Below, piece after piece: positions 7,104 through 29,442 of a stretch of 64,000 nt of DNA. The notes beneath the pieces were generated by a model that was not told the origin of the DNA, did not search any database, and worked only from the letters and a program-made list of their open reading frames with translations. The translations under genes and the position numbers were made by a program. The DNA is from Salinivirgaceae bacterium. GTDB taxonomy: Bacteria; Bacteroidota; Bacteroidia; Bacteroidales; SZUA-534. The stretch covers positions 7,816 to 71,815 of the forward strand of contig JAGCNL010000053.1 of assembly GCA_017645945.1 (NCBI GenBank), written 5' to 3'. Each line of letters opens with the position of its first letter. The stretch's first letter is position 1.

Positions 7104-7187
7104 GCCTAAGTGGCGGAATTGGTAGACGCGCTAGTTTCAGGGACTAGTGTTAGCAATAACGTGCAGGTTCGAGTCCTGTCTTAGGCA
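7104..7187 (+). tRNA. tRNA-Leu (anticodon CAG)
   Basis: Acceptor GCCTAAG/CTTAGGC. D-arm GTGGCGGAATTGGTAGACGC as in bacterial tRNA-Leu. Anticodon stem CTAGT/ACTAG with loop TTCAGGG. Long variable arm. T-arm GGTTCGAGTCC. Confidence 0.9.
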
Positions 7188-7210
7188 CTACAAAAAGTTC
7201 TTTATTTAAT

Positions 7211-7297
7211 GCCCAGATGGTGAAATTGGTAGACACGCTACTTTGAGGGGGTAGTGGCCGTTAGGCTGTGCAAGTTCGAGTCTTGTTCTGGGCACCA
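7211..7297 (+). tRNA. tRNA-Leu (anticodon GAG), CCA encoded
   Basis: Acceptor GCCCAGA/TCTGGGC. Anticodon stem CTACT/GGTAG (one G-U pair) with loop TTGAGGG. Long variable arm. T-arm AGTTCGAGTCT. Ends ACCA. Confidence 0.9.
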
Positions 7298-11362: not shown

Positions 11363-11505
11363 TTAGGATTTAGGATTTAGGAATTAGGAGGTAGGATTTA
11401 GGGGGATTGAATTACGAATTATGAATTACGACTACGGTCTGTTGTCTGAAGTCCGAAGTCCAAAAATCCGATTCACCGATTCAACAAAGGAATAAACGAT
11501 TAAAC
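11363..11505. repeat. heptad-periodic word array (icd-citrate synthase spacer)
   Basis: Starts immediately after the icd stop: ttaggat ttaggat ttaggaa ttaggag gtaggat ttagggg gattgaa ttacgaa ttatgaa ttacgac tacggtc tgttgtc tgaagtc cgaagtc. These 14 heptads are in register (11363-11460). Then ccgattca ccgattca and A-rich aaac words. Confidence 0.85.
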
Positions 11506-11516
11506 AAGAAAAAGTA

Positions 11517-12860
11517 ATGGAGAATTTCATATCTGACGTTTCAAGATTAGTAAACCAATCGTGCCAGATTGACAAGGATTTGTTCGACAAGTACAACGTT
11601 AAGCGTGGCCTGCGCAATTCCGACGGTTCGGGTGTGCTGGTTGGCTTGACAAGCATTGGCGACGTTGTAGGTTATCGCCGTGAGGGCGACACGCTGATTC
11701 CAACCGAAGGCGACCTGCGCTACCGCGGATTTCCAATCCGTGAGTTGGTGAGGGGCTTCCAGAGCGAAAACCGCCCGGGCTTTGAGGAGACAACCTTCCT
11801 GCTGCTTACCGGCAAACTGCCCACATCGCTGCAATTGGCCGAAATGACAACCCATCTGGCCAGCAAGCGCGATTTGGACGACTCGTTCATCAATATGATT
11901 CTTTCATTGCGTGGCCGCGATTTGATGAATATGCTGTCGCGTTCGGTGCTGATTCTCTACACGCTGGACGATACAGCCGAGGATTATTCGCTGCCGAGCC
12001 TTGTTAAGCAGTCGCTCAACCTGATTGCCAAGCTGCCGATTATCGTAGCTTACTCATATCAGGGAATGCGTCACGCGTTCTATCGCAAATCGCTGGTAAT
12101 CAGACACCCGCAGGCTAATCTGTCGGCGGCTGAGAACTTCCTGTATCTGCTTAAGGGCAACAAATACACGCCGCTTGAGGCCGAGATTCTCGACCTTATG
12201 ATGATTCTGCACGCAGAGCACGGCGGTGGTAACAACTCAACGTTCACAATGCGCCTTGTGTCGTCGGCAATGACCGACACTTATTCGGCCACAGCCGCAG
12301 CAATCGGCTCGCTGAAAGGCCGTCTGCACGGTGGCGCAAACCTTCAAGTGCTCGAGATGATGACTAACATCAAGAAGAACGTGAAGAACTGGAACGACAA
12401 GGAGGAGATTAAGTCATATCTGATGAAGATTCTGCGCAAAGAGGCTTACGACCGCTCAGGCAAGATTTACGGCATTGGACACGCCGTTTACACGCTGTCG
12501 GACCCGCGTGCTCAACTGCTGAAAACAAAAGCAATAGAGCTTGCTAAGGCGAAAGGGTTGGAGGCTGAGCTGCAGTTGTACCTGAACATTGAGGAGCTGG
12601 CGCCCAAAGCGCTTGCCGAATACAAGAACGGCAACGTTAAGCCAGTCTGCGCCAATGTGGATTTCTTCAGCGGCTTTGTTTACGAGGCCATCGAGATTCC
12701 GCACGAGCTGTTTACGCCAATGTTCGCCATCGCACGTATGTCGGGCTGGGCAGCGCACCGCCTTGAGGAGATGACCTTCACATCGCGCCGAATCATCCGT
12801 CCGGCTTACAAGAACATCCTGCAAAACGAGTACCATTACGTACCGCTGCAAGATAGATAA
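11517..12860 (+). CDS. gltA: citrate synthase
   Basis: 447 aa ORF with the citrate synthase signature HAEHGGGNNSTF and GHAVY. Third gene of the acn-icd operon. Confidence 0.9.
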   Translation: MENFISDVSRLVNQSCQIDKDLFDKYNVKRGLRNSDGSGVLVGLTSIGDVVGYRREGDTLIPTEGDLRYRGFPIRELVRGFQSENRPGFEETTFLLLTGKLPTSLQLAEMTTHLASKRDLDDSFINMILSLRGRDLMNMLSRSVLILYTLDDTAEDYSLPSLVKQSLNLIAKLPIIVAYSYQGMRHAFYRKSLVIRHPQANLSAAENFLYLLKGNKYTPLEAEILDLMMILHAEHGGGNNSTFTMRLVSSAMTDTYSATAAAIGSLKGRLHGGANLQVLEMMTNIKKNVKNWNDKEEIKSYLMKILRKEAYDRSGKIYGIGHAVYTLSDPRAQLLKTKAIELAKAKGLEAELQLYLNIEELAPKALAEYKNGNVKPVCANVDFFSGFVYEAIEIPHELFTPMFAIARMSGWAAHRLEEMTFTSRRIIRPAYKNILQNEYHYVPLQDR

Positions 12861-12926
12861 ATGATTGATTTACAGATAGATATGAATATTTTTGTAAATT
12901 ATTGATTTACAAGCAATTAGATAAAG

Positions 12927-12956
12927 AGCGAAGTCGGATAGGGGCTTCGCTTTTTT
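12927..12956 (+). terminator. intrinsic terminator after citrate synthase
   Basis: AGCGAAG-tcggatagggg-CTTCGCT followed by T6. Confidence 0.7.
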
Positions 12957-13647
12957 ATTTAGGTAAACTGATTGAAGCGGCTGACAATCAGGGGAGTATT
13001 TAATTCAGGAAATGGTGCCAGCATTAGCAACGATGCGTTAAGCGATTCAATTCTGTTGATTGTAATCATACAATGCAGCTGTCAATTCATTTTTCAGCTG
13101 AAATGTAGAATTTTCTTTGTGTGCCATAAATGCATGAGCCATTGGTCAGAATGCGGCGCGTAAATCGTCTGAGATTTTGATTTTTCGCATACATCAAGAC
13201 CATTGTACGATTCAGGCGCAAAATTCGAGGATTTCGGTGATTTGTGTGAGAAACGTATTTCCATAGAATTATCGTGCTCAATATGCGCCAGAATTCAATA
13301 TTTGCGAATTGTTCCGGTAATCTGTCCAGATATTTGATTCTTAGCGCGTTTTTTTGAATTTTTTCAGAGTTTTTTTGCTGGTGGGGAGTATTTTCATATA
13401 TCCTATTTAACATAATATAAATTATCAGACAAACATAATAATCCGAAAATTACCACGGAATTCATGAAAAACACGGAAATTTCATAATTACCACGGAACG
13501 CACGGAAAACACGGAAATTTTAAATTGTGGCTAACCGATTCTTGCTGATTTATGCCGAGATTACTGTTCAACCCAATCGGCGGTTTTGAGATTTTCAATG
13601 CGCGAAAAATATACTCAATTAGCGAACCGGCGCAAAAGATTAACGGC

Positions 13648-13676
13648 AAAAAAAAAGAGCTGCCAAGTGACAGCTC
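13648..13676 (-). terminator. intrinsic terminator after the 13720-14292 gene
   Basis: Minus strand GAGCTG-tcacttgg-CAGCTC followed by T9. Confidence 0.65.
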
Positions 13677-13719
13677 ATAAAAACAGAATATGTTTTTTAT
13701 ATAGTTGGTTTGGTTGGTT

Positions 13720-14292
13720 TTAGTCTTTTCGTCCGCCCCAATCAATCGAAACGCCGAAAGCGATTGACTGATAGTTGGTTATCTCGGTTTCCCTGTTGTG
13801 TACACGTTTGTCCTGCAATAGATTGTAGCCGCACCACATGTTGAAGTGAGCCAGACGGATTCCAACAGCCGGCAGCGCGTACAGGCCGTTGACATCGCCC
13901 ACAGCATAACCCAGTTTCAGGTCGGCAAACGGAGCGTATTTGCCCATCGGCATTTCGTATCTTGCATTGAAGAAGAACGGCATTGCAAAGTCGAAATCAT
14001 CGTTGCTGTAGCACTCATAGGTATTTGAGTTATCGTCGTAAGTATTGTAATAGAAGTCATCGTTGTTGGTCACAAACTGCATTGAGGCGCCCATGCCCAA
14101 GTACAGATTGTTCGATTGTATGCCGTGAACGGTTGTGATTGCAAACCGGTCGTACGGATGAGAACTTATGCCGGAGAAGATGTTCATGCCGGCAAAACCG
14201 CGGTAACCCTCGGTTGGTGCTGCAGTAAAATCGCCTGCAAACAAGCTCAGGCTCATTGAAACTGCGAAGATTGATAACATTAACTTTTTCAT
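13720..14292 (-). CDS. small outer-membrane beta-barrel protein (porin-family-like)
   Basis: 190 aa ORF with signal peptide MKKLMLSIFAVSMSLSLFA. Alternating aromatic/Gly-rich strands. C-terminal portion IAFGVSIDWGGRKD. Function inferred from composition only. Confidence 0.5.
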   Translation of the reverse strand: MKKLMLSIFAVSMSLSLFAGDFTAAPTEGYRGFAGMNIFSGISSHPYDRFAITTVHGIQSNNLYLGMGASMQFVTNNDDFYYNTYDDNSNTYECYSNDDFDFAMPFFFNARYEMPMGKYAPFADLKLGYAVGDVNGLYALPAVGIRLAHFNMWCGYNLLQDKRVHNRETEITNYQSIAFGVSIDWGGRKD

Positions 14293-14455
14293 AATTGCAC
14301 TTTTTATTTGTTTTTCATAATTGAACTGTCTTTTGGGGCAGTTCGTAAATAAGACAATTTTGTGGGCATCTACCCTACCTCTTTCGTTGTTTTTTTTGCG
14401 GCCAATCGGTTTTTCTGTTTGTGAAACCGATGGTCGGATTTGTTGTAACCAATTG

Positions 14456-14487
14456 AAAAAGAGACCGCTCGAAAACTCGGCGGTCTC
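14456..14487 (-). terminator. intrinsic terminator after the 14524-16530 gene
   Basis: Minus strand GAGACCGC-cgagttttcga-GCGGTCTC followed by TTTTT. Confidence 0.65.
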
Positions 14488-14523
14488 ATAAATGCGAATG
14501 ACGCATTTTAATGTGAAAACAAG

Positions 14524-16530
14524 TTATAATCCTAATTTGAACACCACAATGTCAGAATCGTTATAGGTGGCACTCACCCACACTGCGTTGTCGGCGGCAG
14601 CTGCCAGACCGTTGAACGACACTGTTTTCGAGCCATCGAAAGTCTTTGTGAAGACCACCTTGCCGCTGGCGTCAATCTTTACCAGAACCATGGCGTTGCC
14701 GAAGGTGCCGCCGCTCACAACCGAGCCGTCGGGCAGAATGCGGCTCTCTTTGAAGGCGCCGTCTGTCGGAAGGTCGAACTGAGCCTCCCAGAGCTTCTTG
14801 CCGGCTGCGTCGAAGGCCACAGCATAACCTTTCGACTCCTTGGTGCCTGTATAGACGGTTTTGCCGTTCTGTATGGCTGCCGATGAGAGTTTGCATCCGT
14901 CGAGCATGTTATCCCATTTGATGTAGCCCAGCTCGTCGATTTGAGCCACCCAGCTGTCGTTGAAGGCCATGCTGCACACGTTGCCTGTGACGTCGAGCGC
15001 AAGCGATGTAACCTTCTTGCCTGGTGCGTAGGTGCGAGTCCAGAGTTTGCGGCCCTGTGCGTTGAGCTTGGTGATGAGCGGTGTTGGCAGTGCGGTGTCG
15101 CCCTCCTGCACGTAGCCGCCAAGCAGCGATTTGCCATCAGCGTAAACCACCATCGAAAGAACCTCGTTGCCCTCAAATTTGGCGTTGATTTCGTTCTTGC
15201 CCTGCGGATTCATCTTGAAGAACCACGACTGGCCGGGAACGGTGTTTTTGATGGCGTTGGTGAGACCTGCGGCGTAGAGAGAGCCTGCATTGTCGATGTA
15301 GGCAGTGCTTACGCGGTCGTCGAAATCGTTGCCTAAGATGTCGTTTTTCTGCATTTTACCTTCGGCGTCGAGCTTAATCATCCAAACATCGTCCATGTCG
15401 TCGTTGAGCGATGGTGTGTTGGCGATGACCATCAGCGAGCCGTCGGCAAATGTGGCAATTGAGCCGCCAAAGTCGCGTGCAGCCTTGTTGTCGAAGCCGC
15501 GGATGACCTTGTAGTTCTCCATCGGCAGGTCGGCAGCGATTGACTGTCCGAGAGCAGCCGATTTCAGGTTGAAGATGTCAACAAACATCTCACCCTCAGG
15601 ATATTGCGACACAAACTTGTTGTAAGCCTCGATGCTGTTGACTGATTTTGCCCAGTCGAAGAGCAGCTGGCGTTTCAGCAGTTTGGCCTCGGGCATCTTG
15701 GGCGAGTTCGGATATTGCTCCATAAACTGCTCAATGGCGTCGAGAGTGTGCTTCTGTGCGGCCTCGTCGAATGCCAGAATGCCTAATTTCTTCTTGGCCT
15801 CCTCATACTGCACGGCATCAGGATAGTTGTCCACAAACTGCTTGTAGGCGGCGAACGTGTTGGCTTCAACTGTCTGCTTGTAAGCCAGTGCGTTACGCTC
15901 CTCTTTGGCGATTATTGTCTGTGCTGCGTCGGGATATTTGTTCAGGAAATAGTTGAACGCATCAACCGTGCCGGCATTCTCAGCCTTGCGGAACTCAATG
16001 TAGTTGCGGATATGCACCACATTGTTGTAGTATTTCGAGTCGGGGAACTCCTCGAGGAATTTTTCGGCATATTGCAGATTGTTCTCCTCGCGGACAAACT
16101 TTATCAGCTTCTCCTCCACCAAGTTACGCTCGATTTCCATGTTCTTGTCGATTGGCTTTCCGCGACGCTCGAGCTTCTGTGCCATGAAATATGTGTCGAG
16201 TACTTTCTTGTCGTCGGCTGTGAAAGTTGACACGCCTGCGTCGGCTTTCTTGAAGTGGTGCCAGCCGCGGAAATAGTCTTTCTGCGAGTAAGCGTCGTAC
16301 GAGAGCACGATGGCCATACCAAGGTTTGCCATGGCGTTGCTGGCGTCTTTGGCCAACACTTTCTCAAGCGTGGCGCGGGCTTTGTTCATATTTTCATCAA
16401 CGGCAGGCTGACGGTCTTTGGCCTTCACTCCGGCAACAATGTCCTCGAAAGCCTTTTCGGGCTTTTGCGCCATGGTCGGCAGCACCATTGCCACCGACAT
16501 CAGAAATGCGAATATAATATGCTTGTTCAT
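14524..16530 (-). CDS. secreted protein with N-terminal helical repeats and a C-terminal beta-propeller-like region
   Basis: 668 aa ORF with a signal peptide. Recurrent F(L/V/M)xxYP(D/N/E) helical repeat (FLNKYPDA, FVDNYPDA, FMEQYPNS, FVSQYPEG). The C-terminal half has repeated G(K/R)xLW motifs. Confidence 0.5.
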   Translation of the reverse strand: MNKHIIFAFLMSVAMVLPTMAQKPEKAFEDIVAGVKAKDRQPAVDENMNKARATLEKVLAKDASNAMANLGMAIVLSYDAYSQKDYFRGWHHFKKADAGVSTFTADDKKVLDTYFMAQKLERRGKPIDKNMEIERNLVEEKLIKFVREENNLQYAEKFLEEFPDSKYYNNVVHIRNYIEFRKAENAGTVDAFNYFLNKYPDAAQTIIAKEERNALAYKQTVEANTFAAYKQFVDNYPDAVQYEEAKKKLGILAFDEAAQKHTLDAIEQFMEQYPNSPKMPEAKLLKRQLLFDWAKSVNSIEAYNKFVSQYPEGEMFVDIFNLKSAALGQSIAADLPMENYKVIRGFDNKAARDFGGSIATFADGSLMVIANTPSLNDDMDDVWMIKLDAEGKMQKNDILGNDFDDRVSTAYIDNAGSLYAAGLTNAIKNTVPGQSWFFKMNPQGKNEINAKFEGNEVLSMVVYADGKSLLGGYVQEGDTALPTPLITKLNAQGRKLWTRTYAPGKKVTSLALDVTGNVCSMAFNDSWVAQIDELGYIKWDNMLDGCKLSSAAIQNGKTVYTGTKESKGYAVAFDAAGKKLWEAQFDLPTDGAFKESRILPDGSVVSGGTFGNAMVLVKIDASGKVVFTKTFDGSKTVSFNGLAAAADNAVWVSATYNDSDIVVFKLGL

Positions 16531-16541
16531 AACTATTTAGA

Positions 16542-17936
16542 TTACTTCTTTAAAACAAAAAATTCAACTCGGCGATTGTTGCTCTTGCCTTGGTCGGTCA
16601 GGTTGGTGTCGATTGGGCGGGTTTTGCCGTAGCCTTTTGCTTGCAGCATGTTGGGGCTTATCCCCTTCGATACCAAATAGTTGACAACGGCTTGTGCGCG
16701 TGCTTGACTCAGTTTCAGGTTCAGCTCGTCGGAGCCAACATTGTCAGTGTGACCGCTGATTTCAATCTGACTTACAGTGCCTTCGGCCAGGAATGCGGCA
16801 ATCTTGTCGAGCTCGGCATTCGACTGTGGCAGCAGCGTGCTCTTGCCAGTCTCGAAGAAGATGTTGTTCAGAATAAGCGCAGAGCCTTCCTCAATGTTGC
16901 GGAGGCCGTCAGTGAAGGGGTCTTCGGGGATTTCAGGCTGAACGAAAACAACCTTGCCGCTGTTGTGGCAGTTGTTCTTGTCGGAAACGGTGTAGGTGTA
17001 GGTTCCGGCCGGCAGATTGGTCAGCTTCTGCCCTGTCGCGCCATTCGACCATTTGATGCTGTATGGCGGTGTTCCGCCCGATATGCCCAGGCTGATGACG
17101 CCGTCGTCGATGATGCGCTGGATTTTGCCGGTCACAGGGTCGAGACCGCCAGTGTAGGCAGAGTCAACAATCACTGTTTCAAGACCTTTCGGCACGCAGG
17201 CGCACACCTCGCAGGTGGTCAGCGGACGAATCTCAAAATCGTCGAAGAAATAGTATGCGTATTTCTTGCCTTTCTTGTTCTGCACGTCCTTGCCGGTCAC
17301 CACGTAGTTGGTGTTCTCGTAGTTCTTGAAGTTGCCCACGGTGAAGAACATCTCGTTGCCCGATGCGGTGTAGAGCATGCAGTAGTGCTTCCACTCGTCG
17401 GTGTTGTCGAGGAACAGGCCCGACTCGTTGTTAAGCTGGCCGTTGTAGTTCAGGAAAGTGGTGTTGCCGTTGGCGATTTTCTCCTGCGAGAAGTATATGC
17501 TCAACTGGTCGACAGCGAACATTGAGCCGTTGGCCAGCTTGTACCAGAACGAAACGCAGTAAACCTCTCCCGCTTTCATCGGGCTTTTGAGCTCGCCCTG
17601 AATGTACTCGCGGTAGTCGCGGTCAGAGCCGGTCAGAATGGCGCCCATGTAGCCTTTTCCGCTGTGCGGCTGGCTGTAGCCGGCAAAGTTGTCGGGCACT
17701 TTCACGTCGCCCGTGCTGCATTTGTTGAAATAGTCGGGCGTGGTGAACGACGGGTATGTCCAGTGCGGTATCAGCCTGTGCGACTGGTCGTTGTAGATGT
17801 AGGTTTCAGGGCACTTCTCATACTGTTCGAAACTCGGGTTGTAAACCATATTGGTCTCATCTTCAACTTCTTGTGCCATAAGAAGTGCCGGACAGGCGCA
17901 CAAGATTCCGAGTAAATTGACAAATTTTTTGTTCAT
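16542..17936 (-). CDS. OmpA-family (OmpA/MotB C-terminal domain) protein with a SprB-like repeat
   Basis: C-terminus SGHTDNVGSDELNLKLSQARAQAVVNYLVSKG...NRRVEFFV is a classic OmpA_C peptidoglycan-binding domain. GGTPPYSIKWSNG resembles a SprB repeat. The probable start is MNKKFVNLLG (ATG 17934-17936), not the track start at 17963. Confidence 0.8.
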   Translation of the reverse strand: MNKKFVNLLGILCACPALLMAQEVEDETNMVYNPSFEQYEKCPETYIYNDQSHRLIPHWTYPSFTTPDYFNKCSTGDVKVPDNFAGYSQPHSGKGYMGAILTGSDRDYREYIQGELKSPMKAGEVYCVSFWYKLANGSMFAVDQLSIYFSQEKIANGNTTFLNYNGQLNNESGLFLDNTDEWKHYCMLYTASGNEMFFTVGNFKNYENTNYVVTGKDVQNKKGKKYAYYFFDDFEIRPLTTCEVCACVPKGLETVIVDSAYTGGLDPVTGKIQRIIDDGVISLGISGGTPPYSIKWSNGATGQKLTNLPAGTYTYTVSDKNNCHNSGKVVFVQPEIPEDPFTDGLRNIEEGSALILNNIFFETGKSTLLPQSNAELDKIAAFLAEGTVSQIEISGHTDNVGSDELNLKLSQARAQAVVNYLVSKGISPNMLQAKGYGKTRPIDTNLTDQGKSNNRRVEFFVLKK

Positions 17937-18065
17937 CGGTTTTTCTCTTTTATTTCGATTCAAAAATGTTCATTTCAATTCAAAAAAGTGGGGTTAAGAT
18001 ACGCAAAAAAACTATTGTGTGCTTCGCTCCCGTCCCATAAAAACTAACAATTTTGGAACAGTCAG

Positions 18066-18311
18066 TTAAAGCATTGCTTCAAGTGCGGCAACGGCAGAGG
18101 CTATGTCAGAAGAAAATGTGGAGTGCGAAAGAAGGAAATCTGTGCGGCCGTTGGCAAGCTGCGCATAAAGCTTGCTGTTCATGCTTTCCACATACGAGGC
18201 AATGGCATATTCTATCTCCTCCTTCTGCTGCGGGCTGTTGGAATACTGATAAACACGCCACTTCTGATGGAAGAAACAATAGGCCGATTCGATGCTGTGT
18301 GGGGAAAACAT
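18066..18311 (-). CDS. hypothetical small protein (81 aa)
   Basis: The track ORF starts at 18347, but its first 12 codons are read out of the heptad array. The probable start is MFSPHSIESAY (ATG 18309-18311). No family recognised. Confidence 0.45.
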   Translation of the reverse strand: MFSPHSIESAYCFFHQKWRVYQYSNSPQQKEEIEYAIASYVESMNSKLYAQLANGRTDFLLSHSTFSSDIASAVAALEAML

Positions 18312-18320
18312 TGTGAAGGC

Positions 18321-18530
18321 AGAATTTAGAATTAAGGCATTAGGCACTGGGCATTAGGCAATAGGTGTTTGGTATTGGGTGTTGGGTGTTGGGGAATTAC
18401 GAATTATGAATTACGAATTACGAATTACGAATTATTGCTTTTTTTGTCTGTTGTCTGTTGTCCGTAGTCTTAAGTCCTAAGTCTCAAGTCTTAAATCCTA
18501 AATCCTAAATCCTAAATATTAAATATTAAA
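18321..18530. repeat. heptad-periodic word array, 30 consecutive heptads in one register
   Basis: Verified base by base: agaattt agaatta aggcatt aggcact gggcatt aggcaat aggtgtt tggtatt gggtgtt gggtgtt ggggaat tacgaat tatgaat tacgaat tacgaat tacgaat tattgct ttttttg tctgttg tctgttg tccgtag tcttaag tcctaag tctcaag tcttaaa tcctaaa tcctaaa tcctaaa tattaaa tattaaa. The array fills the whole spacer and overlaps the stop codon of the 18526-18711 gene. Confidence 0.9.
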
Positions 18531-18711
18531 TAAACCTTTTGTGCTCTTCGGAGTATTGGAAACCTTCGGCGGCGAGGCGTTGCTCAAGCTCGTTGCGGTT
18601 GATGTTGAAATGGAAGCAAATCTCGTCGAGCGTGTCGAATTCCTCATCGCGCAGCAGGAAATTGATGGCCGACACAAGCATTGGTGTGTCGTTTAATGGC
18701 AAATGGTCCAT
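18526..18711 (-). CDS. small conserved protein, DUF4250-like
   Basis: 61 aa ORF, MDHLPLNDTPMLVSAINFLLRDEEFDTLDEICFHFNINRNELEQRLAAEGFQY. It resembles the short DUF4250 family as I remember it. Not verified. Confidence 0.5.
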   Translation of the reverse strand: MDHLPLNDTPMLVSAINFLLRDEEFDTLDEICFHFNINRNELEQRLAAEGFQYSEEHKRFI

Positions 18712-18816
18712 ATTGTTGATTTTTCGCGCAAAAGTAGCCTTTTTCTTGTTGTGTAGGCAAACAAAAACTGCCGAACAAAATGCCCGGCAGTTTCCTACAA
18801 ATGTATCACTTTAAAA

Positions 18817-19419
18817 CTATTTCTTCTGATTTGCCTCATATTCAGCGTTCAAGCCTTCAATGATGTCGTTTGTGATGTTGTACTTCTCGTTGGCGTACCA
18901 CATGCTGCCGCCGATGGTGCGTGTCAGCACGAATTTGTAGCGCTCCGGAGTGTTGTACTTGGTTACGTAAGCTGAAATCTTCTCGAACAGCTGGTTGTTC
19001 ATGTTCTGCTGCTCAACAGCCAACTGCTGCGAGTACTCGTCCTGAAGGCGCTGGAACTCCTGCTGGCGGACAAGCAGACGCTGCTGCTCTTCTTCGGCGC
19101 GCTGAGTGGTCAGGAAGATGCCCTTCTGAACCTTGTCCTGGAAAGTCTCGATGTCTTTTTGAAGTGCTTTTGCATCGCGCTCAAGCTTGCTCTGCATATT
19201 GGCGTACTTCTTCATGATGGCATCGTTCAGCTCAATCGAGAGTTTGTAGTTAACAAGGATTGAATCGACGTCGATAAATGCGATGTCGCACGCTCCGACA
19301 GCTGTCGAATCGTTGGCCGCAACGGCAGCCGGTGCCTGTGTCTGGTTTGCACAACTTGTTGAAAGGAAGCCCATTGCAACTACTGCAATTGCACAGGCAA
19401 AAATTGAATTAGTCTTCAT
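18817..19419 (-). CDS. OmpH/Skp-like periplasmic chaperone lipoprotein
   Basis: Probable start MKTNSIFACAIAVVAMGFLSTSC (lipobox). Q/E/K-rich coiled-coil body typical of the OmpH family. Confidence 0.6.
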   Translation of the reverse strand: MKTNSIFACAIAVVAMGFLSTSCANQTQAPAAVAANDSTAVGACDIAFIDVDSILVNYKLSIELNDAIMKKYANMQSKLERDAKALQKDIETFQDKVQKGIFLTTQRAEEEQQRLLVRQQEFQRLQDEYSQQLAVEQQNMNNQLFEKISAYVTKYNTPERYKFVLTRTIGGSMWYANEKYNITNDIIEGLNAEYEANQKK

Positions 19420-19505
19420 ATAAATCTGTTTTATTACTTTATTTTTTTGTTGCGCCAAATGTATTACAATTAGCGGGATTTAGCAGTTTTTGTCAATCTT
19501 TTTTT

Positions 19506-19584
19506 GGTGAATCGGTGAATCGTTTAATGTTTAACGGGTTTAACCACTTAATTCTGAATTCTGATTTCTAAATTCTGAATTTTC
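19506..19584. repeat. word array (two 8-mers, then nine heptads in register)
   Basis: ggtgaatc ggtgaatc, then gtttaat gtttaac gggttta accactt aattctg aattctg atttcta aattctg aattttc. The array ends at the cstA stop codon. Confidence 0.8.
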
Positions 19585-21000
19585 CTACTTCTTCTTGGTT
19601 ATATACCGAATGGCGATGAACGACAGCACAACTGTGAACACAAGGCCGATTGAGTAGCCCCACACGGGTGGCAGCGAGAATCCTTCGGGCGCCAATAATA
19701 TATATGTGCTGCAAACCGATGTCATAAAGATGGCAGGAATGAGCGTTATGATATAACGACGTCCGTGGCGGTACAGATAGGCTGTAATAGCCCACAGAGT
19801 GAAGATTGACAACGTTTGGTTGAACCATCCGAAGTAGCGCCAAAGCACGGCAAAATCGATGAGCATAAGCACTGCTGAAATGGCAAAAATTGGCACCGAA
19901 ACCGCCAGACGTTTTGGTATGGTGTTCTGCGGAAAATGCAGAAAATCAGCAGTTATCAGTCGTGCAGAGCGCAGAGCGGTGTCGCCCGATGTGATTGGCG
20001 CGGCCACAACACCCAGAATGGCCAGAATGGCACCAATGCGGCCCATCCAGTCGTTGCAGATGAAGTTGACAATGTTAGCCGGATTGCCGTTCATTTTGAG
20101 TGCAAGTCCTTCCGATGTACCGCCAGCGTATTTGATTGCGGCGGCAGCCCAAATCAAAGCCACAAAACCTTCTGTAATCATTGCGCCATAGAAGGCGATG
20201 CGGCCATAGCGCTCGTTTTTCAGGCATCGGGCCATCATCGGGCTTTGCGTGGCGTGGAATCCGCTGATTGCACCGCAGGCAATGGTTATGAACAGGAATG
20301 GGAAGATACTCAATCCTTTAGGATGATGAGTATGGAATGCTTCAGTTATCTCAGGCATCGAACCGCTGTGGGTGAAAATGCCAATGAACACGCCTGCCGC
20401 CATAATGAGCAGCGCCAGTCCGAACACGGGATAAATCTTGCCGATGAGCGTATCGATAGGCAGCAGAGTTGCCATCATATAATAGCAGAAGATGATGACG
20501 CACCAGAAGGTCTTGCTGCCGATGAAACCCGCTGTCGGTGTCAGTCCTTCGAGCAGACCTGCAGGCGTGGTTACAAACACGGCACCCACCATTACCATCA
20601 GCAAAAGCGAGAACACGCGCATAACCTGACGCACACCCAAGCCCAGCTCATCGCCCACAATCTCGGGCAGCGACGCGCCGTCTTTGCGCAGCGAAATCAT
20701 TCCCGACATAAAATCGTGAACCGCGCCGCCGAAAATGCAGCCCAGCACAATCCACAAGTAAGCCGCAGGGCCAAACAAAATGCCGCCGATGGCACCGAAG
20801 ATTGGTCCCGTGCCGGCGATATTCAAAAACTGAATCAGAAACACTTTCCAAAGCGGCATCGGAATGTAATCGACACCGTCCTGACGAGTGTAAGCTGGTG
20901 TCTGGCGGTTGGCATCAACCCCTAACACCTTCTCAACAAATGCACCATAGAATAAATAGCCCAAAATAAGGGCAAGAACTGAAACAATGAATGTTATCAT
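19585..21000 (-). CDS. cstA: carbon starvation protein A family transporter
   Basis: 471 aa polytopic membrane protein. The N-terminal region through FLNIAGTGPIFGAIGGILFGP is typical of CstA. Confidence 0.85.
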   Translation of the reverse strand: MITFIVSVLALILGYLFYGAFVEKVLGVDANRQTPAYTRQDGVDYIPMPLWKVFLIQFLNIAGTGPIFGAIGGILFGPAAYLWIVLGCIFGGAVHDFMSGMISLRKDGASLPEIVGDELGLGVRQVMRVFSLLLMVMVGAVFVTTPAGLLEGLTPTAGFIGSKTFWCVIIFCYYMMATLLPIDTLIGKIYPVFGLALLIMAAGVFIGIFTHSGSMPEITEAFHTHHPKGLSIFPFLFITIACGAISGFHATQSPMMARCLKNERYGRIAFYGAMITEGFVALIWAAAAIKYAGGTSEGLALKMNGNPANIVNFICNDWMGRIGAILAILGVVAAPITSGDTALRSARLITADFLHFPQNTIPKRLAVSVPIFAISAVLMLIDFAVLWRYFGWFNQTLSIFTLWAITAYLYRHGRRYIITLIPAIFMTSVCSTYILLAPEGFSLPPVWGYSIGLVFTVVLSFIAIRYITKKK

Positions 21001-21039
21001 AATTGTATTTTTTAATCGATGTGCGAAGGTATATAATTT

Positions 21040-21262
21040 GGTGAATAGGTGAATTGATTTTTTTGCTTGGATGGACTGCAGACTATAGACAACCGACTGT
21101 AGACAACAGACAACAGACTGCAGACAAAGCTAATGCCCAACCCCCAACACCTAACACCCAACACCTATTGCCTAATGCCTTAATTCTGAATTCTAACTTC
21201 TAAATTCTGAATTCAGATTTCTAACTCCTAACTCCTAACTCCTAACTCCTAAATCTACCTAA
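21040..21262. repeat. heptad-periodic word array, at least 26 heptads in one register (21074-21255)
   Basis: ggtgaata ggtgaatt, then gactgca gactata gacaacc gactgta gacaaca gacaaca gactgca gacaaag ctaatgc ccaaccc ccaacac ctaacac ccaacac ctattgc ctaatgc cttaatt ctgaatt ctaactt ctaaatt ctgaatt cagattt ctaactc x4 ctaaatc. The words are reverse complements of those at 18321-18530. Confidence 0.9.
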
Positions 21263-21274
21263 CACCCCTCCGTG

Positions 21275-22930
21275 CTACTCCTCTTCCACGCCCCATTCAA
21301 CCAGAATGTTGTCAGGGTTCCAATCGTCGCTCCAGCCGTCGGGTTGCGACATGGCACGGCAGCGGATTGTCAGGCTGTCGCATCCGGCAAACGCCTCATC
21401 TTCAATATTCTGAACCGATTCGGGGATGGTGACCATTTCAAGGCTGCTGCAGTCGGAGAACGCACATTCGTCGATTCTCACAACTGAGTTTGGAATATCA
21501 ACCGATGTCAGGCTGCTGCAATCCTCAAACGCGCTGCCGCCAATGCTCTTGACCGATTCGGGAATGGTCACTGCAGTCAGGTCGCGGCAACCGCGGAACG
21601 CATTGCTGTAAACAAAACGGCAGCCTTCGCTAATCTCGCAGGCAGTTATGTCGTCAGATTTGGCCTTAATCAGGCACAAATACGGATTTTTGGCGTTTCC
21701 TAAATATAATGCGTTGTCGAACTCATTGAATTTCAGGCATGTGCAATCCTCAAACGATTCCCAGCCGATGCTTGCTACCGAATCAGGAATCACAGCCGAC
21801 TCCATTTTGCGGCAGCTCTTGAACGCCCAATTGTCGATGCATGCAACCGAATCAGGCACTACCAGCGACAACAAGCTACCACAACCCGCAAATGCGCTTT
21901 TCTCGATGTCGGAAACCGAATCGGGAATGGTGACAGCCGTCAGGCCGTAGCAACCGCGGAACGCGCTGCTGCCAATGGTTTTGACGGTTTTCGGAATGCT
22001 ATAGGCGCCCATCTTTCCTGCCGGATAGCATATCAGGCGCGTTTTTTCCTTGTCGAACAGAACACCCTCGTCCGAAGTGTAGTTGGCATTCTTGCGCTCA
22101 ACGTTTATGGCTTTCAGAAGGCTGCAGACGCGGAACGCACCGCCGCCGATTGATGTCACTGAGTCGGGTATGTTGACTGATTTCAGCTGTGCGCAACCCT
22201 CAAACGCATAATCGCCAATGGTTGTCACTGAGCCTGGGATAGCAACCGATGTGAGGCCGCTGCCTGCAAATGCTTCGTTTCCAATGCTTTTGACAGATTT
22301 TCCGATGGTTGTCGATTGCAAACTACGGCAGTTCGAGAACACTCTGTGTCCGATGGCTGAGACCGAATCGGGAATAACAACCGACTCCAGGCTGCTGCAA
22401 TTGACAAACGCGCCATCGTCGATAACAGTCACAGTATTAGGAATATCGACCGATGTAAGGCCACGGCAGCCGTAGAAGGCATTGTCGCCGATGCTGGTGA
22501 CTGAACGCGGAATTTTTATCGATGTGAGGCCGATGCAGCACGAAAACATGTTGCTGCCGATGTGTTTGACTGAACTGGAGATGGTTACCTGCGTCAGTCC
22601 GCTGCAATTCTGAAACGCATAATCGCCAATTTTCAGAACTGAATCGGGAATCGTGACCGAAGTCAGGCTGCTGCAGCCCATGAACGCGCCATCGCCAATT
22701 TTGCGCACCGAACGCGGAATGGTGACCGATTTGAGACCGACGCAGTTCTCAAAAGCGCTGTCGCCGATGCTCGTCACCGCATATCCGACACCGTCCACAC
22801 AAAAATCATCAGGAATGGCAACCTCCTCATCTTCACCGTTATAACGGGTTATGGTCACTTCATGGTTAGCTTTGTCGGTGATTTCAAAAATCAATCCCTC
22901 TTCAGTGTTTTTGATTGAACAGGTTCCCAT
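21275..22930 (-). CDS. BspA-type leucine-rich repeat protein
   Basis: 551 aa ORF with about 20 tandem ~23-aa repeats of the form IPDSVTSIGDxAFxxCxxLxSV. No N-terminal signal peptide (MGTCSIKNTEEG). Confidence 0.8.
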   Translation of the reverse strand: MGTCSIKNTEEGLIFEITDKANHEVTITRYNGEDEEVAIPDDFCVDGVGYAVTSIGDSAFENCVGLKSVTIPRSVRKIGDGAFMGCSSLTSVTIPDSVLKIGDYAFQNCSGLTQVTISSSVKHIGSNMFSCCIGLTSIKIPRSVTSIGDNAFYGCRGLTSVDIPNTVTVIDDGAFVNCSSLESVVIPDSVSAIGHRVFSNCRSLQSTTIGKSVKSIGNEAFAGSGLTSVAIPGSVTTIGDYAFEGCAQLKSVNIPDSVTSIGGGAFRVCSLLKAINVERKNANYTSDEGVLFDKEKTRLICYPAGKMGAYSIPKTVKTIGSSAFRGCYGLTAVTIPDSVSDIEKSAFAGCGSLLSLVVPDSVACIDNWAFKSCRKMESAVIPDSVASIGWESFEDCTCLKFNEFDNALYLGNAKNPYLCLIKAKSDDITACEISEGCRFVYSNAFRGCRDLTAVTIPESVKSIGGSAFEDCSSLTSVDIPNSVVRIDECAFSDCSSLEMVTIPESVQNIEDEAFAGCDSLTIRCRAMSQPDGWSDDWNPDNILVEWGVEEE

Positions 22931-23101
22931 ATCTGCTTTGTTTTTAGTTTTTAGCTTTTAAAAATAGGAAAAATTTTAATCGAGAGTAGGTTTCCGCGTA
23001 AATATTTGCGAAAGTCACGTACAAATTCCGTCTTTGAAACGCACCTGGTCCATGTCTCATAATAGGTTGATAACTTATTCTATTGACTATCGATTTTTAG
23101 A

Positions 23102-23109
23102 TAATTTTG
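23102..23109 (+). promoter_or_regulatory. candidate -7 box (TAATTTTG)
   Basis: Matches TAnnTTTG, 23 nt upstream of the ATG at 23132. Confidence 0.4.
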
Positions 23110-23131
23110 GGGCATTAAATAAAACGAATCT

Positions 23132-24541
23132 ATGAGCGGATTTTTTGGGGCAGTCACCAATACCGACTGCGTTTCCGATGTTTTCTACGGTACCGACTAC
23201 CACTCTCATCTTGGGACAAAACGTGCGGGTATGTCGATTTATTCGACAAAATTAGGCTATCAGCGTGCTATCCACAGCCTTGAAGACGGTTATTTCCGAA
23301 ACAAGTTTGAAGGCGATATGGCAGGATTCAGTGGCGAGTCGGGAATCGGCTGCATCAGCGACAACGAGGCGCAGCCGTTGGTCATCTTCTCGCACCTGGG
23401 GCGCTTTGCCATCACCACAGTGGCCAAAATAAACAATGTTGATGAACTGGCCGACCGTTTCCTGCGCGAGGGAAAAACCTTCACAGAGACCAGCCAGGGC
23501 GGCATCAACCCCACCGAGCTGATTGCCATGCTCATCTGCGAGAAGCAGAGTTTCAAAGAAGGAATCGAGAACGTCTACAACAGCATAAAAGGCTCGTGCT
23601 CAATGCTGATTCTGAACAAGGACGAGATTATCGCCGGGCGCGACAAACTGGGCCGCACTCCTATCGTTATCGGTAAGAAAGAAGGTGCCTACTGCGCCGC
23701 TTCCGAGACTTCATCGTTCCTGAACCTTGATTACAAAGTTGAAAAATATATTGGTCCGGGCGAGATTGTGTCAATCCGCAACAATGGCTATTCTGTTCTG
23801 CGCGAGGCAAATAACGAGATGCAGATTTGCTCGTTCCTGTGGGTTTACTATGGTTATCCACCGGCATGCTACGAGGGCATCAACGTTGACCAGACTCGCT
23901 ACCGCTGCGGTCAGAAACTTGCCGCCAACGACGATGTGAAAGACGCAGATTTTGTGGCTGGTATCCCCGATTCGGGCGTTGGTCACGCAATGGGCTACAG
24001 TGCCGCTACAGGCATTCCGTACATGCGTCCTTACGCAAAATACACGCCGACATGGCCGCGCAGCTTCATGCCGCAAAACCAGAAACAGCGTGACTTGGTG
24101 GCAAAGATGAAGCTGATTCCGAACGCTTCGGTCATCAACGGGCGCAAGGGTATCTTCCTCGACGACTCGATTGTGCGCGGTACTCAGCTGAAAGACAATG
24201 TGAAAGACCTGATGGAGGCTGGTATCAAAGAGGTGCATATGCGCGTTGCCTGCCCGCCGCTCATCTACCCTTGCGAATATCTGAACTTCAGCCGTTCGCG
24301 CTCGTCGCTTGAGCTGGCTACACGCAAGGCCATTGTTAAACTTGAGGGCAAAGAGGATGTCGATTTCTCAAAATATGCCGACCCCGATTCGCAGGAATAC
24401 AAGGATATGGTTGAGCAGATGCGTAAGGATATGAATCTGACCACGCTTCGGTTCCAGCGCCTTGAGGACTTGATTGAGGCCATCGGTCTGCCGAAAGAGA
24501 AGCTCTGCACCCACTGCTGGGACTGCTCGAGCCGAGGATAG
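23132..24541 (+). CDS. amidophosphoribosyltransferase-like protein (PurF paralog lacking the N-terminal Cys nucleophile)
   Basis: 469 aa ORF with a class-II amidotransferase-like N-terminal half and a PRPP-binding motif (FLDDSIVRGTQ). The N-terminus is MSGFFG rather than MCG. Confidence 0.7.
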   Translation: MSGFFGAVTNTDCVSDVFYGTDYHSHLGTKRAGMSIYSTKLGYQRAIHSLEDGYFRNKFEGDMAGFSGESGIGCISDNEAQPLVIFSHLGRFAITTVAKINNVDELADRFLREGKTFTETSQGGINPTELIAMLICEKQSFKEGIENVYNSIKGSCSMLILNKDEIIAGRDKLGRTPIVIGKKEGAYCAASETSSFLNLDYKVEKYIGPGEIVSIRNNGYSVLREANNEMQICSFLWVYYGYPPACYEGINVDQTRYRCGQKLAANDDVKDADFVAGIPDSGVGHAMGYSAATGIPYMRPYAKYTPTWPRSFMPQNQKQRDLVAKMKLIPNASVINGRKGIFLDDSIVRGTQLKDNVKDLMEAGIKEVHMRVACPPLIYPCEYLNFSRSRSSLELATRKAIVKLEGKEDVDFSKYADPDSQEYKDMVEQMRKDMNLTTLRFQRLEDLIEAIGLPKEKLCTHCWDCSSRG

Positions 24542-24619
24542 TGTGAAGTCCCGATAGCTATCGGGATGAAGGATTGAAGTGATTTAAACCGAGAGTAATA
24601 ACCTTAAATACTTGAAATT

Positions 24620-24781
24620 ATGATTTTTAAGATTTTTATCGTAGCATTTATTTTTGCTTGCGGCCTGTATTATCTGGTATGTTTTCTTGAGATGTTCGGT
24701 ATTATCAAATTCACTCCGGAGAATCAAGAAGTCTCATTCCCCAAGATGCTGATACCCTTTTACTATTTCTTTAAGAAATGA
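24620..24781 (+). CDS. possible small membrane protein (53 aa)
   Basis: Below the track length cutoff. MIFKIFIVAFIFACGLYYLVCFLEMFGIIKFTPENQEVSFPKMLIPFYYFFKK has one hydrophobic helix. AT-rich and unverified. Confidence 0.3.
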   Translation: MIFKIFIVAFIFACGLYYLVCFLEMFGIIKFTPENQEVSFPKMLIPFYYFFKK

Positions 24782-24809
24782 TTGTTAATAACCTATAAAT
24801 CTTTTAGTT

Positions 24810-25991
24810 ATGCTGAATATTTCGAGAAAGCGAATCGTCGGCGGAGTTTGCGCCGTTTTCGCACTTGTGGTGCTCTCAATGCTTGGCCGAATTGGCGAAG
24901 ATGTTAAGAATGAGACAATTGTAGTGAACCAATTCCCCTTCACGGGAAAAATGGACTATTGGACAACGCCTGGTTGGCGCGGTCAGTGGTTTGGTAAGAC
25001 AACCGTTTATCACAAGACCGAGCAGCTGTGGTTTGGTGCCACTGACGAAGGAAACCGCGCGAACGGCACTCCTATTCCGGTCATCTTCAACGATGCTTCT
25101 GACGGCTTGATTTACGGCTCGTTGCGTGTGAAATTGCCGACTGACATTGAGCACCTGTCGCGCATCCAAACAGACTACAACGGTATGGACCGCTTGATGA
25201 ACGACCTCGTAAAACAGACTGTTACAAAAGTAATCTATGCTTCAGGCCCGCTGATGTCGGCGTTCGAGAGCTATGCTGAGAAGAAGAACGACCTGATTGA
25301 ATACATCACCGACCAGCTGAACAACGGTGTTTACAAAACTACTGTTAAAACAGAGGAGACTATCGACCCAATCACGGGTGAGAAGAAAACGACTAAAATC
25401 GCGGCTCTCGTTCCCGATGAGAACGCTCCCGGCGGCTTCAAACGTTCAGAGTCCTCTCCTTTCAAATATTACGGTATTGAGATTGGCCAAGTGTCTGTAA
25501 GTAAGATTGATTACAGCGACAAGGTTAAGCAGCAGATTTCGCAGCAACAGGAGGCCAACATGCTTATCCAGACTTCAAAGGCAAAGGCTGCAGCAGCCGT
25601 TCAGGAAGCCATCCGCGCCGAGGAAGAAGGTAAGGCTAAAGCCGCTCAAGCCAAGTGGGAACAAGAGCGTATAAAGGCTACTGAGGTTACCAAGGCCGAG
25701 CAGGAACGTGAGGTTTCGCGCCTGGCAGCTGAGAAAGCCGAATTCGACAAGAAGAAAATTATTGCTGAAGGTCAGGCTGAAGCCGAGGCCAACCGCTTGA
25801 AAGTTGCTGCAGGTCTGACACCGCAGGAGCGCGCCGAGTGGGATTACAAGACCAAAGTTGGTGTGGCTGAAGCAATTAGCAAAGTACAGCTGCCCCGCAT
25901 TGTGACGGCAGGTGGAGCCGGCAATTCAAACGCAATGGATGCCATGGGCTTGAAAATGCTTCTTGATGTGAGCGAGAAACTGAGTAAGTAA
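24810..25991 (+). CDS. SPFH/band-7-like membrane protein with a coiled-coil C-terminus
   Basis: 393 aa ORF with an N-terminal TM segment and an A/E/K-rich coiled coil (AKAAAAVQEAIRAEEEGKAKAAQAKWEQER). Family assignment is from general resemblance only. Confidence 0.5.
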   Translation: MLNISRKRIVGGVCAVFALVVLSMLGRIGEDVKNETIVVNQFPFTGKMDYWTTPGWRGQWFGKTTVYHKTEQLWFGATDEGNRANGTPIPVIFNDASDGLIYGSLRVKLPTDIEHLSRIQTDYNGMDRLMNDLVKQTVTKVIYASGPLMSAFESYAEKKNDLIEYITDQLNNGVYKTTVKTEETIDPITGEKKTTKIAALVPDENAPGGFKRSESSPFKYYGIEIGQVSVSKIDYSDKVKQQISQQQEANMLIQTSKAKAAAAVQEAIRAEEEGKAKAAQAKWEQERIKATEVTKAEQEREVSRLAAEKAEFDKKKIIAEGQAEAEANRLKVAAGLTPQERAEWDYKTKVGVAEAISKVQLPRIVTAGGAGNSNAMDAMGLKMLLDVSEKLSK

Positions 25992-26062
25992 CTTGAACTT
26001 TATGTATGAAACGACAAGGATTCCGGTTGGAATCCTTTCGTTTTGATATAGAACCAAGAAAA

Positions 26063-29339: not shown

Positions 29340-29344
29340 TGATA

Positions 29345-29442
29345 GTAGGATTTAGAAGTTAGGATTTATGAGTTGGAAGTTAGTAATTAGTAGTAATCTG
29401 CGATTAAATCTTAATTCCTACATCCTAAATCCTAAATATCTT
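29345..29442. repeat. heptad-periodic word array whose two halves are reverse complements
   Basis: gtaggat ttagaag ttaggat ttatgag ttggaag ttagtaa ttagtag taatctg cgattaa atcttaa ttcctac atcctaa atcctaa atatctt. All 14 heptads are in one register. TTAGGAT on the left and ATCCTAA on the right are reverse complements. Confidence 0.85.

Follow-up and report, generated by a model that had tools for sequence, protein, structure and literature searches.

Heptamer repeats, among them the STRR, LSSR, TAACTGA and GGGAATC types, have been catalogued since about 1990 and, to our knowledge, have no accepted origin or function. The classical cyanobacterial STRR words are CCCCAGT, TTGGTCA and CAACAGT. Dispersed repeats with larger modules include the pneumococcal BOX element, organized as boxA-boxB(n)-boxC, and the BIME of E. 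coli, both of which have stem-loop-forming modules of 30-60 nucleotides (nt). The LSSR class of 5-11-nt units, heptanucleotides included, is attributed to Mrazek 2007 in the later papers that cite it (PMC4679880, PMC4692102). In Xanthomonas and Nostoc, heptameric repeats are over-represented in intergenic DNA, lie nearer the upstream open reading frame (ORF) and keep their positions between close relatives, with variable length and sequence (PMC4692102). Arrays of TAACTGA occur 'forward' of start codons in Beggiatoaceae, Cyanobacteria and five Bacteroidetes; in Gramella and Aequorivita, long TAACTGA arrays are accompanied by other heptamers and relatives without them have shorter spacers, and in Elizabethkingia nearly identical intergenic regions carry assemblages of heptamer repeats (MacGregor 2015, PMC4679880). 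Here we analysed an array of tandem heptamers at positions 21040-21262 of a 64,000-nt stretch of DNA from a Salinivirgaceae bacterium (contig JAGCNL010000053.1; the whole stretch is hereafter called the window), where it occupies the spacer between a gene for a BspA-type leucine-rich repeat (LRR) protein and cstA.

We favour, at a probability of roughly 0.6, the reading that this array belongs to a lineage-specific family of mosaic repeats in intergenic DNA, whose members are passengers copied between loci and remodelled by slippage. The genes of the neighbourhood (SprB repeat/OmpA, OmpH and BspA-LRR) point to a host in the Bacteroidota, and the nearest CstA homologues come from metagenome-assembled genomes labelled 'Salinivirgaceae bacterium' or 'Bacteroidales bacterium'.

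The arrays belong to the broad kind of intergenic heptamer repeat represented by STRR and LSSR. As in those families, head-to-tail 7-nt units occur beyond chance in many dispersed arrays (about eight in 64 kb), which lie in non-coding spacers, often start near the end of the upstream gene and, where close relatives have an array at the same position, differ between them in length and sequence; for both, slippage by roughly 7 nt at a time has been put forward as the origin. They are not STRR in the strict cyanobacterial sense, because the host belongs to the Bacteroidales/Salinivirgaceae and the three classical words match no consensus unit returned here by the repeat finder TRF. They differ further from STRR and LSSR in being mosaics of up to six to eight word classes in conserved order, in carrying a non-heptad 8-nt word (class H) and 24-nt unit (class K) at the 3′ side, and in offering direct evidence of whole-array copying between loci. 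Like BOX and BIME elements, they are dispersed intergenic modules in fixed order, located within operons and devoid of coding capacity, with internal modules in variable copy number; unlike them, their modules are 7-nt tandem blocks without stable stem-loops or excess folding (z from -1.39 to +0.56), with no Rfam match and no sequence similarity to BOX or REP.

With the TAACTGA system, the arrays share an intergenic location, a mostly 'forward' sense relative to the downstream start and a word, CTAAACT of class K, placed just upstream of start codons as TAACTGA is. In contrast, MacGregor 2015 follows a single word and reports no conserved multi-block order or polarised gain (PMC4679880), and a search of the window for TAACTGA repeats (TAACTGATAACTGA, at most one mismatch) gave no matches. 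The GGGAATC or GGGGA(T/C)T repeats of Xanthomonas and Nostoc (Rehm 2015, PMC4692102) are likewise heptameric, intergenic and closer to the upstream ORF, but they are single-word, form G-quadruplexes and occupy either strand about equally, whereas the present arrays are mosaics in which only the D block (GGGTGTT) has G-tract character, inconsistently across arrays. In the related-repeat literature, we found no description of a conserved multi-block order across many loci and species, of a polar layout in which the variable blocks lie next to the stop codon and the conserved modules next to the start codon, or of polarised gain together with paralogous copies demonstrating copying.

Structure of the LRR-to-cstA array

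The spacer measures about 220 bases and is filled by the array. Pfam matches confirmed the two minus-strand flanking genes named in an earlier note on this DNA, with the gene for the BspA-type LRR protein upstream (21275-22930; LRR_5, 1.7e-127) and cstA downstream (19585-21000; CstA, 6.2e-63). Positions 21074-21255 (182 nt) comprise exactly 26 heptads in a single register with no indel, reading on the plus strand from GACTGCA GACTATA GACAACC to CTAACTC x4 CTAAATC. The stretch is identical to itself at 0.71 of positions at lag 7 and 0.64 at lag 14, against 0.23-0.29 at every other lag; 2000 shuffles gave a lag-7 identity of 0.28 +/- 0.033, with a maximum of 0.41. TRF independently called period-7, -14 and -21 arrays at 21074-21252. 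The parse, the shuffles and TRF thus bear out the earlier count of at least 26 heptads in register, and the initial letters, eight G followed by 18 C, agree with the remark that each heptad begins with C or G. The words GACTGCA/GACAACA, CTAATGC/CCAACAC, CTGAATT/CTAAATT and CTAACTC x4 are present as they had been listed, but the 'words' written as 8-mers (GAATTCAG, GGCATTAG, GGTGTTGG) are each a heptad plus one base. A genuine 8-nt unit, GATTCACC, lies at 21040-21055, outside the 26-heptad register. Four independent metagenome assemblies yielded the same sequence for the array, which therefore is not an assembly artefact.

Read in the sense of the two genes (minus strand), the spacer opens directly 3′ of the LRR stop codon (21275-21277) with a degenerate edge containing a D-like word (21256-21274, CACGGAGGGGTGTTAGGTA). 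Block A follows as the most stop-codon-proximal block (21221-21255; five heptads, GAGTTAG x4 and GATTTAG), and the TAG in each of its heptads places stops in all three frames. It is succeeded by block B (21179-21220; six heptads of AATTCAG, AATTTAG and AAGTTAG types), blocks C and D (21130-21178; seven heptads, GCATTAG/GCAATAG and GTGTTGG/GTGTTAG/GGGTTGG) and blocks F/G (21074-21129; eight heptads ending in GTC, among them TGTTGTC, TGCAGTC, TACAGTC and TATAGTC). A non-repeat C/A-rich linker (21056-21073, CATCCAAGCAAAAAAATC), whose junction of a C-run and an A-run also occurs 3′ of the F/G block in other arrays, leads to block H (21040-21055), two 8-nt units (AATTCACC TATTCACC) that form the module nearest the start codon. 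The remaining 39 nt (21001-21039) are a unique leader with an A-rich stretch running to the cstA ATG; its box TACCTTCG at 21024-21031 is one mismatch from TAnnTTTG, the -7 motif of Bacteroidetes. Block H and the leader are both kept in sister species. The only inverted repeat in the spacer consists of the GAATTC palindrome words in block B.

Block order is shared by arrays at unlinked loci

The roughly eight heptad arrays detected in the window by a period-7 scan and TRF all lie between ORFs. Words were assigned to classes A (GGAGTTA/GGATTTA), B (GAATTCA/GAATTTA), C (GGCATTA/GGCACTA), D (GGTGTTG/A), E (GAATTAC/T), F (GTCTGTT), G (GTCC/TNNA, such as GTCCTAA), H ([GA]ATTCACC, GATTCACC) and K (CTAAACT/GTTAAAC), and were mapped on each array after orientation by word strand; in RNA spelling, array words read (GGAGUUA)n, (GAAUUAC)n and (GAUUCACC)n.

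Among seven arrays of the window, 48 class pairs were concordant in order and 6 discordant under a block assignment that is our own classification, and none of 20,000 within-array permutations reached the observed value (permuted mean about 0, standard deviation 9.5). Non-orthologous pairs between the window and a sister species gave 49 concordant and 5 discordant (p = 0.00025). A stricter scan for exact word doublets agreed with the block maps, returning AEFGH, DEFG, ABDFH and CEFG in the window, and CECGFG, CADCKHFG, DKH, CDH, CDK, DCFGKH and CKH in sister species. Once oriented, the arrays were visibly colinear, both in a plain MAFFT alignment of five of them and in the block maps of all. 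The earlier note had claimed that the order of the LRR-to-cstA array is the same at 11363-11505 and 35877-35995 and, were it mistaken, expected order to be random. The permutation tests support a non-random order in the window and in sister-species arrays alike; sameness itself holds as a strong tendency with exceptions, as D precedes C and an extra H precedes F/G at 35877, and the LRR-to-cstA array has a D remnant (21262) before A.

The LRR-to-cstA array itself has the order D-A-B-C-D-C-F/G-H, and the other arrays are laid out as follows. In the icd-to-gltA spacer, an array begins at the icd stop codon and runs A-E-F-G-H (11363-11505, plus). That of the ABC-F-to-RNA-ligase spacer (35877-35995, plus) runs A-D-C-E-H-F-G-(H), with the stop codon inside its first word and its end 7 nt before the ATG. 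Between the DUF4250 gene (18526-18681, minus) and an 81-aa gene (18066-18311, minus), about 30 heptads, read by eye, form a single register at 18321-18532 (plus) in the order B-C-D-E-F-G followed by TAAATCC x3; this array had been described as the reverse-strand counterpart of the one upstream of cstA, and the two are indeed 80% identical over 81 nt on opposite strands. The cstA-to-ompH spacer (19500-19581, minus) shows B-K-H, its distal part consisting of other words in sister species. Between the genes at 56997-58271 and 58463-59407, the array at 58263-58453 (plus) has the order A-K; block A lies 3′ of the stop codon, and a short hairpin divides it from block K, which contains a 24-nt unit and precedes the ATG. 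A divergent spacer holds GGTAAGG words, E, a hairpin and K words up to the ATG of the gene at 1467-2753 (2764-2912, minus; order E-K), and a further array lies between a 166-aa gene and a glycosyltransferase-like gene (29350-29437, minus). Two palindromes were noted within these arrays: a G+C-rich one, GTAGAGACGTAGCGCGCTACGTCTGTAC, in mid-array in the divergent spacer (2800-2835), and a shorter one, CCCGATAGCTATCGGG, between blocks A and K (about 58338-58353).

Whole arrays are gained and copied

Orthologous loci were compared in L245/L246 (CstA 97% identical, syntenic with the window), in L247 (CstA 96%, different neighbours) and in four relatives whose 198-aa protein is identical to that of the window at 82% (L250, P0127), 75% (L251, P0131), 85% (L252, P0126) and 57% (L253, P0140). 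The junction between the 195-aa and 198-aa genes has no spacer in the window (30566/30567, AAATAAATG), L251 or L253, where it reads TAAATG or TAGATG. At the same junction in L246, L250 and L252, a composite array of 214-258 nt stands exactly between the stop TAG and the ATG. In a tree built from identities over three neighbouring proteins, L246 pairs with L252 and is joined successively by L250, the window, L251 and L253, and the parsimonious reading is a single gain in the ancestor of L246, L250 and L252. Hence, a complete composite array can arise where no spacer existed; in the gained array, the blocks already follow the canonical order, with H x2 and an A-run at the end before the ATG.

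Moreover, arrays at unlinked loci are homologous as well as colinear. The LRR-to-cstA spacer of L246 and the 195aa-to-198aa array of L252 are 91.7% identical over 109 nt without a gap (E = 1e-41 in an 18-spacer database). This shared stretch takes in TGGTAATATGTTAAAC, non-repetitive sequence (TGTRTTGGTAATATGTTAAAC), CAGCGAAGCGA units and a 24-nt unit, CTAAACTTCTAAACAGCGAAGCGA, of which a diverged copy lies at 58383-58420 of the window. The ABC-F-to-RNA-ligase array is 94% identical over 48 nt to the 195aa-to-198aa array of L246, and 82% over 61 nt to its LRR-to-cstA array, the latter match spanning the 'discordant' H-F/G arrangement. CTAAACTTCTAAACAGCGAAGCGA occurs in tandem two to four times within the K module at three unlinked loci (58383-58420; L246 9780-9850; L250/L252 about 9880-9970), as a higher-order unit inside otherwise 7-nt arrays.

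Under the favoured reading, each copy is a chain of tandem 7-nt word blocks, with the 8-nt H word and 24-nt K unit at its 3′ side, spanning from the upstream stop codon to just before the next gene's start or promoter. Blocks would grow and shrink by slipped-strand mispairing in 7-nt steps, so that 26-30 heptads stay in register, and point mutations would yield new words that are then amplified into blocks; neighbouring words are often one base apart, as are TTAAGTC, TTAAATC, CTAAATC and CTAAATA in the 18321 array. Ectopic recombination, gene conversion or template switching may copy segments of several blocks, or entire arrays, from one intergenic site to another, with shared word blocks acting as the homology that preserves and homogenises block order and seeds new sites. 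Arrays would persist because operons tolerate them as passengers that bring early stops, no terminator hairpin, no excess RNA structure and an A-rich, G-poor 3′ end.

A non-autonomous transposable element, either MITE-like or an IS200/IS605-type passenger, with its transposase elsewhere and heptad blocks as cargo expanding after insertion, would likewise account for a complete array gained at a zero-length junction, for paralogous copies 92% identical, for arrays in both orientations and for a synteny breakpoint of L247 at the distal edge of its array upstream of cstA. We regard this as distinctly improbable. Neither terminal inverted repeats nor subterminal hairpins were found, the former search yielding only internal GAATTC words in the LRR-to-cstA array and nothing in the L250/L252 arrays. 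No target-site duplication is visible at the gain site, where one event separates the empty state (...AAATAG/ATG...) from the filled state (...AAGTAG/TTAGG...AAAAAAA/ATG), and no transposase was seen near arrays in the window. The ends of the gained array coincide with the stop and start codons; array ends in general vary and match such codons, as expected if selection trims them, and the copies are too unlike in content for a unit to be defined.

Single words are widespread but their combination is lineage-specific

In GTDB genomes, (GAATTAC)3 occurs at at least 120 loci in many phyla, the hosts among the matches listed including Nostocales, Saprospiraceae, Ignavibacteria, Acidobacteriota, Chloroflexota, Planctomycetota, CPR (the candidate phyla radiation) and Akkermansia. 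The E variant string AATTACGAATTATGAATTACGA, common to three arrays of the window, was considered as a lineage marker of shared descent and dropped, since at least 120 loci in JGI metagenomes carry it. Stretches in IMG/VR numbered 47 for (GAATTAC)3, 29 for (GGAGTTA)3 and 13 for (GGCATTA)3, against 6 and 7 for two same-composition scrambles, the words being 2-8 times commoner; some heptads may be generally favoured, two scramble controls being too few to say. In contrast to the single words, the combination did not recur. None of 240 loci among the matches listed, genomic and metagenomic, had companion words of the window within 250 nt of an E array, and none of 342 unrelated loci with the same single words, viral contigs included, had three or more word classes clustered; as a positive control, about 190 kb of this lineage contained 11 such clusters.

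Independent slippage in situ at each locus, converging on favoured heptads without homology, would be in keeping with single words found in many phyla, with the IMG/VR counts and with the wide recurrence of GAATTAC-GAATTAT-GAATTAC, and the spread of single words does indicate that some arise repeatedly. As an account of the mosaics, it is highly improbable: it explains neither the common multi-block order, nor the shared non-repetitive junctions and 92% identity over 109 nt between unlinked spacers, nor the absence of the combination from the 342 unrelated loci. The earlier note had argued that conserved order between unlinked loci could hardly come from independent slippage and had suggested either a common origin or functional syntax; the first point is upheld by the order test and by the near-identical unlinked arrays, and a common origin by those copies, the whole-array gain and the confinement of the word combination to this lineage.

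The change from GAATTAC to GAATTAT, a C-to-T in CG context, appears in the same pattern at 11409-11431, 18394-18434 and 35907-35935 and at more than 120 unrelated metagenome loci, which suggests recurrent mutation, possibly deamination at methylated CpG, rather than shared descent.

Turnover, polarity and the case for function

Every orthologous spacer of L246 and L247 contains an array, but the blocks differ. On the distal, stop-codon side of the cstA-to-ompH spacer, they are B x4 in the window, D x9 in L246 and (GGAGTAA) x~12 plus D x3 in L247; the start-side part is conserved, with GTTAAAC words, H x2-4 and a promoter-like box TAATACATTTGG. The LRR-to-cstA spacer of L246 reads C-A-D-C-K-H-F/G-K-H, and the spacer upstream of cstA in L247, despite a divergent OTCase gene as its upstream neighbour, reads C-D-E-K-F/G-K-H; the last H, the box TACCTTCG and the A-rich leader are conserved in the window, L246 and L247. 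In the alignable 5′ half of the 195aa-to-198aa arrays, 7-nt and 14-nt indels distinguish L246, L250 and L252 (E x3 versus E x1), and the 3′ halves of these arrays are swapped wholesale. Between sister species, therefore, arrays gain or lose complete units and exchange one block for another in its entirety. No arrays were found in 21 kb of L249 (CstA 80% identical), which confines the trait to a subgroup. The synteny of L247 with the window breaks exactly at the distal edge of its array upstream of cstA (9625-9720), where OTCase/PyrI genes take the place of the LRR gene.

The GT-rich word strand is the sense strand in six of the seven independent co-directional spacers of the lineage (icd-gltA, ABC-F to RNA ligase, LRR-cstA, cstA-ompH, 56997-58271/58463-59407, and 195aa-198aa in L246/L250/L252). 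The seventh is the DUF4250 locus, where the 18321-18532 array is antisense to both minus-strand neighbours, except for GGATTTA x3 after the DUF4250 stop, and this reversed orientation is kept in the sister species. Furthermore, (TAAATCC)n stands in 'reverse' sense just before start codons in L250, L252 and L253. Polarity relative to genes is a tendency and not a rule, and at 6 versus 1 (6 versus 3 with single-word arrays) it is not statistically secure. Two explanations of the polarity pattern were set aside. A plus-strand ORF at 18053-18316, which would make the 18321 array sense, was rejected on account of its Cys/Arg/Trp-rich junk translation and because every assembly has the minus-strand ORF annotated as a gene. 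Replication direction does not set the polarity, given that arrays of opposite polarity lie about 1 kb apart (18321, plus; 19581, minus).

These features bear on a functional alternative, already raised in the earlier note, in which block order is under selection and the arrays serve as cis-acting platforms, either at the DNA level or in RNA that is intercistronic or untranslated. Stop-codon words would follow the upstream gene and H/K words would precede the downstream start. The readers would be one or more proteins that each cover roughly 7 nt, such as single-strand binders of the cold-shock-domain, S1 or another type, or else a regulator that binds DNA. Such a syntax would make sense of an order common to loci and species, of the GT-rich sense of most arrays, of conserved H/K modules near starts beside variable distal blocks, and of the position of H 8 nt from a conserved -7-like box; several arrays, lacking promoter room, probably lie inside operon transcripts. 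S1/Csp/Csr binding has been proposed for TAACTGA repeats (MacGregor 2015, PMC4679880), and the K word CTAAACT is similar to them in word and position. Nevertheless, between species whose CstA is 96-97% identical, blocks at orthologous positions are freely exchanged for others that differ in word and copy number, and the window and two outgroups lack an array at the 195aa-to-198aa junction, where their flanking genes are the same. One array runs opposite to its genes, (TAAATCC)n precedes starts in the opposite sense in three relatives, no candidate binding protein is known, and shared descent already accounts for the common order. We saw no evidence of a dedicated function of the heptad part and consider this alternative unlikely; the conserved start-proximal H/K modules and leader may be ordinary cis-regulatory sequence.

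Several points count against our own reading of the arrays as copied passengers. The strongly conserved order, the GT-rich sense in about six of seven co-directional spacers, the reversed orientation kept at the DUF4250 locus in two species and the spacing of 8 nt between block H and a -7-like box in all three species could each reflect selection for function rather than tolerance, and the order test depends on block classes that we drew ourselves. Ectopic conversion is what we infer for the copying step, and the gain site offers no target-site duplication, terminal inverted repeats or nearby recombinase. In addition, array length did not vary among the four assemblies (99.97-100% identical overall), so slippage is not fast on population time scales.

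RNA structure and sequence signals

The LRR-to-cstA array folds no better than its shuffles (z = -1.39), and neither do three sister arrays (+0.56, -0.32 and +0.47). The arrays contain no Rfam family and no tRNA, and a promoter/terminator scan found no terminator-like site in the array spacers, that is, no G+C-rich hairpin followed by a T-run; its sigma-70 consensus is uninformative for Bacteroidetes. That the arrays are structured non-coding RNAs, terminators or attenuators, or a CRISPR-like system is barely credible on these results and on the tandem arrangement of the units without unique spacers, even with one related spacer folding significantly and about 10% of (GAATTAC)n arrays in other phyla having an inverted GTAATTC partner within 300 nt. 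The related spacer (29340-29441, minus) carries two heptad blocks in inverted arrangement, with GGATTTA-type words following the stop codon and the complementary words preceding the start codon, and folds into one long hairpin closing the entire spacer (z = -3.6); its L252 orthologue (11126-11228) consists of other words (CTAACTT x5) and still folds (z = -3.45).

Three further ideas were rejected. A CRISPR array would have repeats of 24-48 nt with unique spacers, and the units here are 7 nt long and directly adjacent. A role in Rho loading, with a C-poor sense strand avoiding rut sites, does not fit, as only blocks A-D are C-poor, and the K/H parts and whole arrays often have more C than G. 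G-quadruplex formation is inconsistent across orthologues, since D blocks sometimes contain GGG tracts and their orthologues read GGTGTTA with GG only.

In sense composition, the arrays pass from G-rich and C-poor (5% C in blocks A-D) to an A-rich, G-poor tail before the ATG (4% G, 47% A); initiation regions of Bacteroidetes are A-rich and unstructured. Every A-D word contains TAG, so that each of the three frames meets an early stop, within 2-43 nt of where the spacer begins. Several arrays leave only 7-31 nt before the ATG or lie between formerly abutting cistrons, and this spacing, with no room for a promoter, suggests that they are probably transcribed as intercistronic RNA.

Implications

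This lineage is unusually informative about heptamer repeats because its multi-block mosaics make array history readable. Together with a polarised whole-array gain at a zero-length operon junction and 92%-identical paralogous copies, they render answerable the question of whether such arrays grew in place or were copied, and the answer here is that they were copied and then remodelled by slippage. The naturally filled and empty operon junctions are also suited to testing the effects of arrays on expression. If the arrays are merely tolerated passengers, this is a tidy explanation of an oddity; if proteins read their grammar, Bacteroidales would possess a new layer of regulation.

A bolder proposal, which we hold to be a long shot, is that the mosaics form a self-propagating intergenic element of a kind not recognised before, with dedicated machinery such as a polymerase or recombinase that copies or re-synthesises 7-nt units, or a block grammar read by heptad-specific nucleic-acid-binding proteins. 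The recurrence of GAATTAC, GGAGTTA and GGCATTA across phyla and viral contigs would then be due to a molecular reader or writer in common instead of chance, and a self-propagating element would be one that spreads into operon stop/start junctions without inverted repeats, target duplications or hairpins.

Other features of the window and its relatives

Downstream of ompH, L247 carries a type II CRISPR-Cas locus (12313-18433; cas9, cas1, cas2) that is not in the window. A metagenome contig with an identical CstA, L003 (4596-15738), is only 95.2% identical to the window (14911-26057) over 11 kb with 24 gap openings, yet the three array spacers compared are 100% identical, which suggests a recombinant or mosaic strain. 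Within the window, a repeat of CACGGAA-containing units with periods of 9, 18 and 38 (TRF score 118 for period 38) lies at 13448-13520, upstream of the gene at 13087-13413, and is unrelated to the heptad vocabulary. Two adjacent tRNA-Leu genes (7104-7297; anticodons CAG and GAG) and a tRNA-Arg gene (46707-46781; ACG) are the only Rfam and ARAGORN matches in the window.

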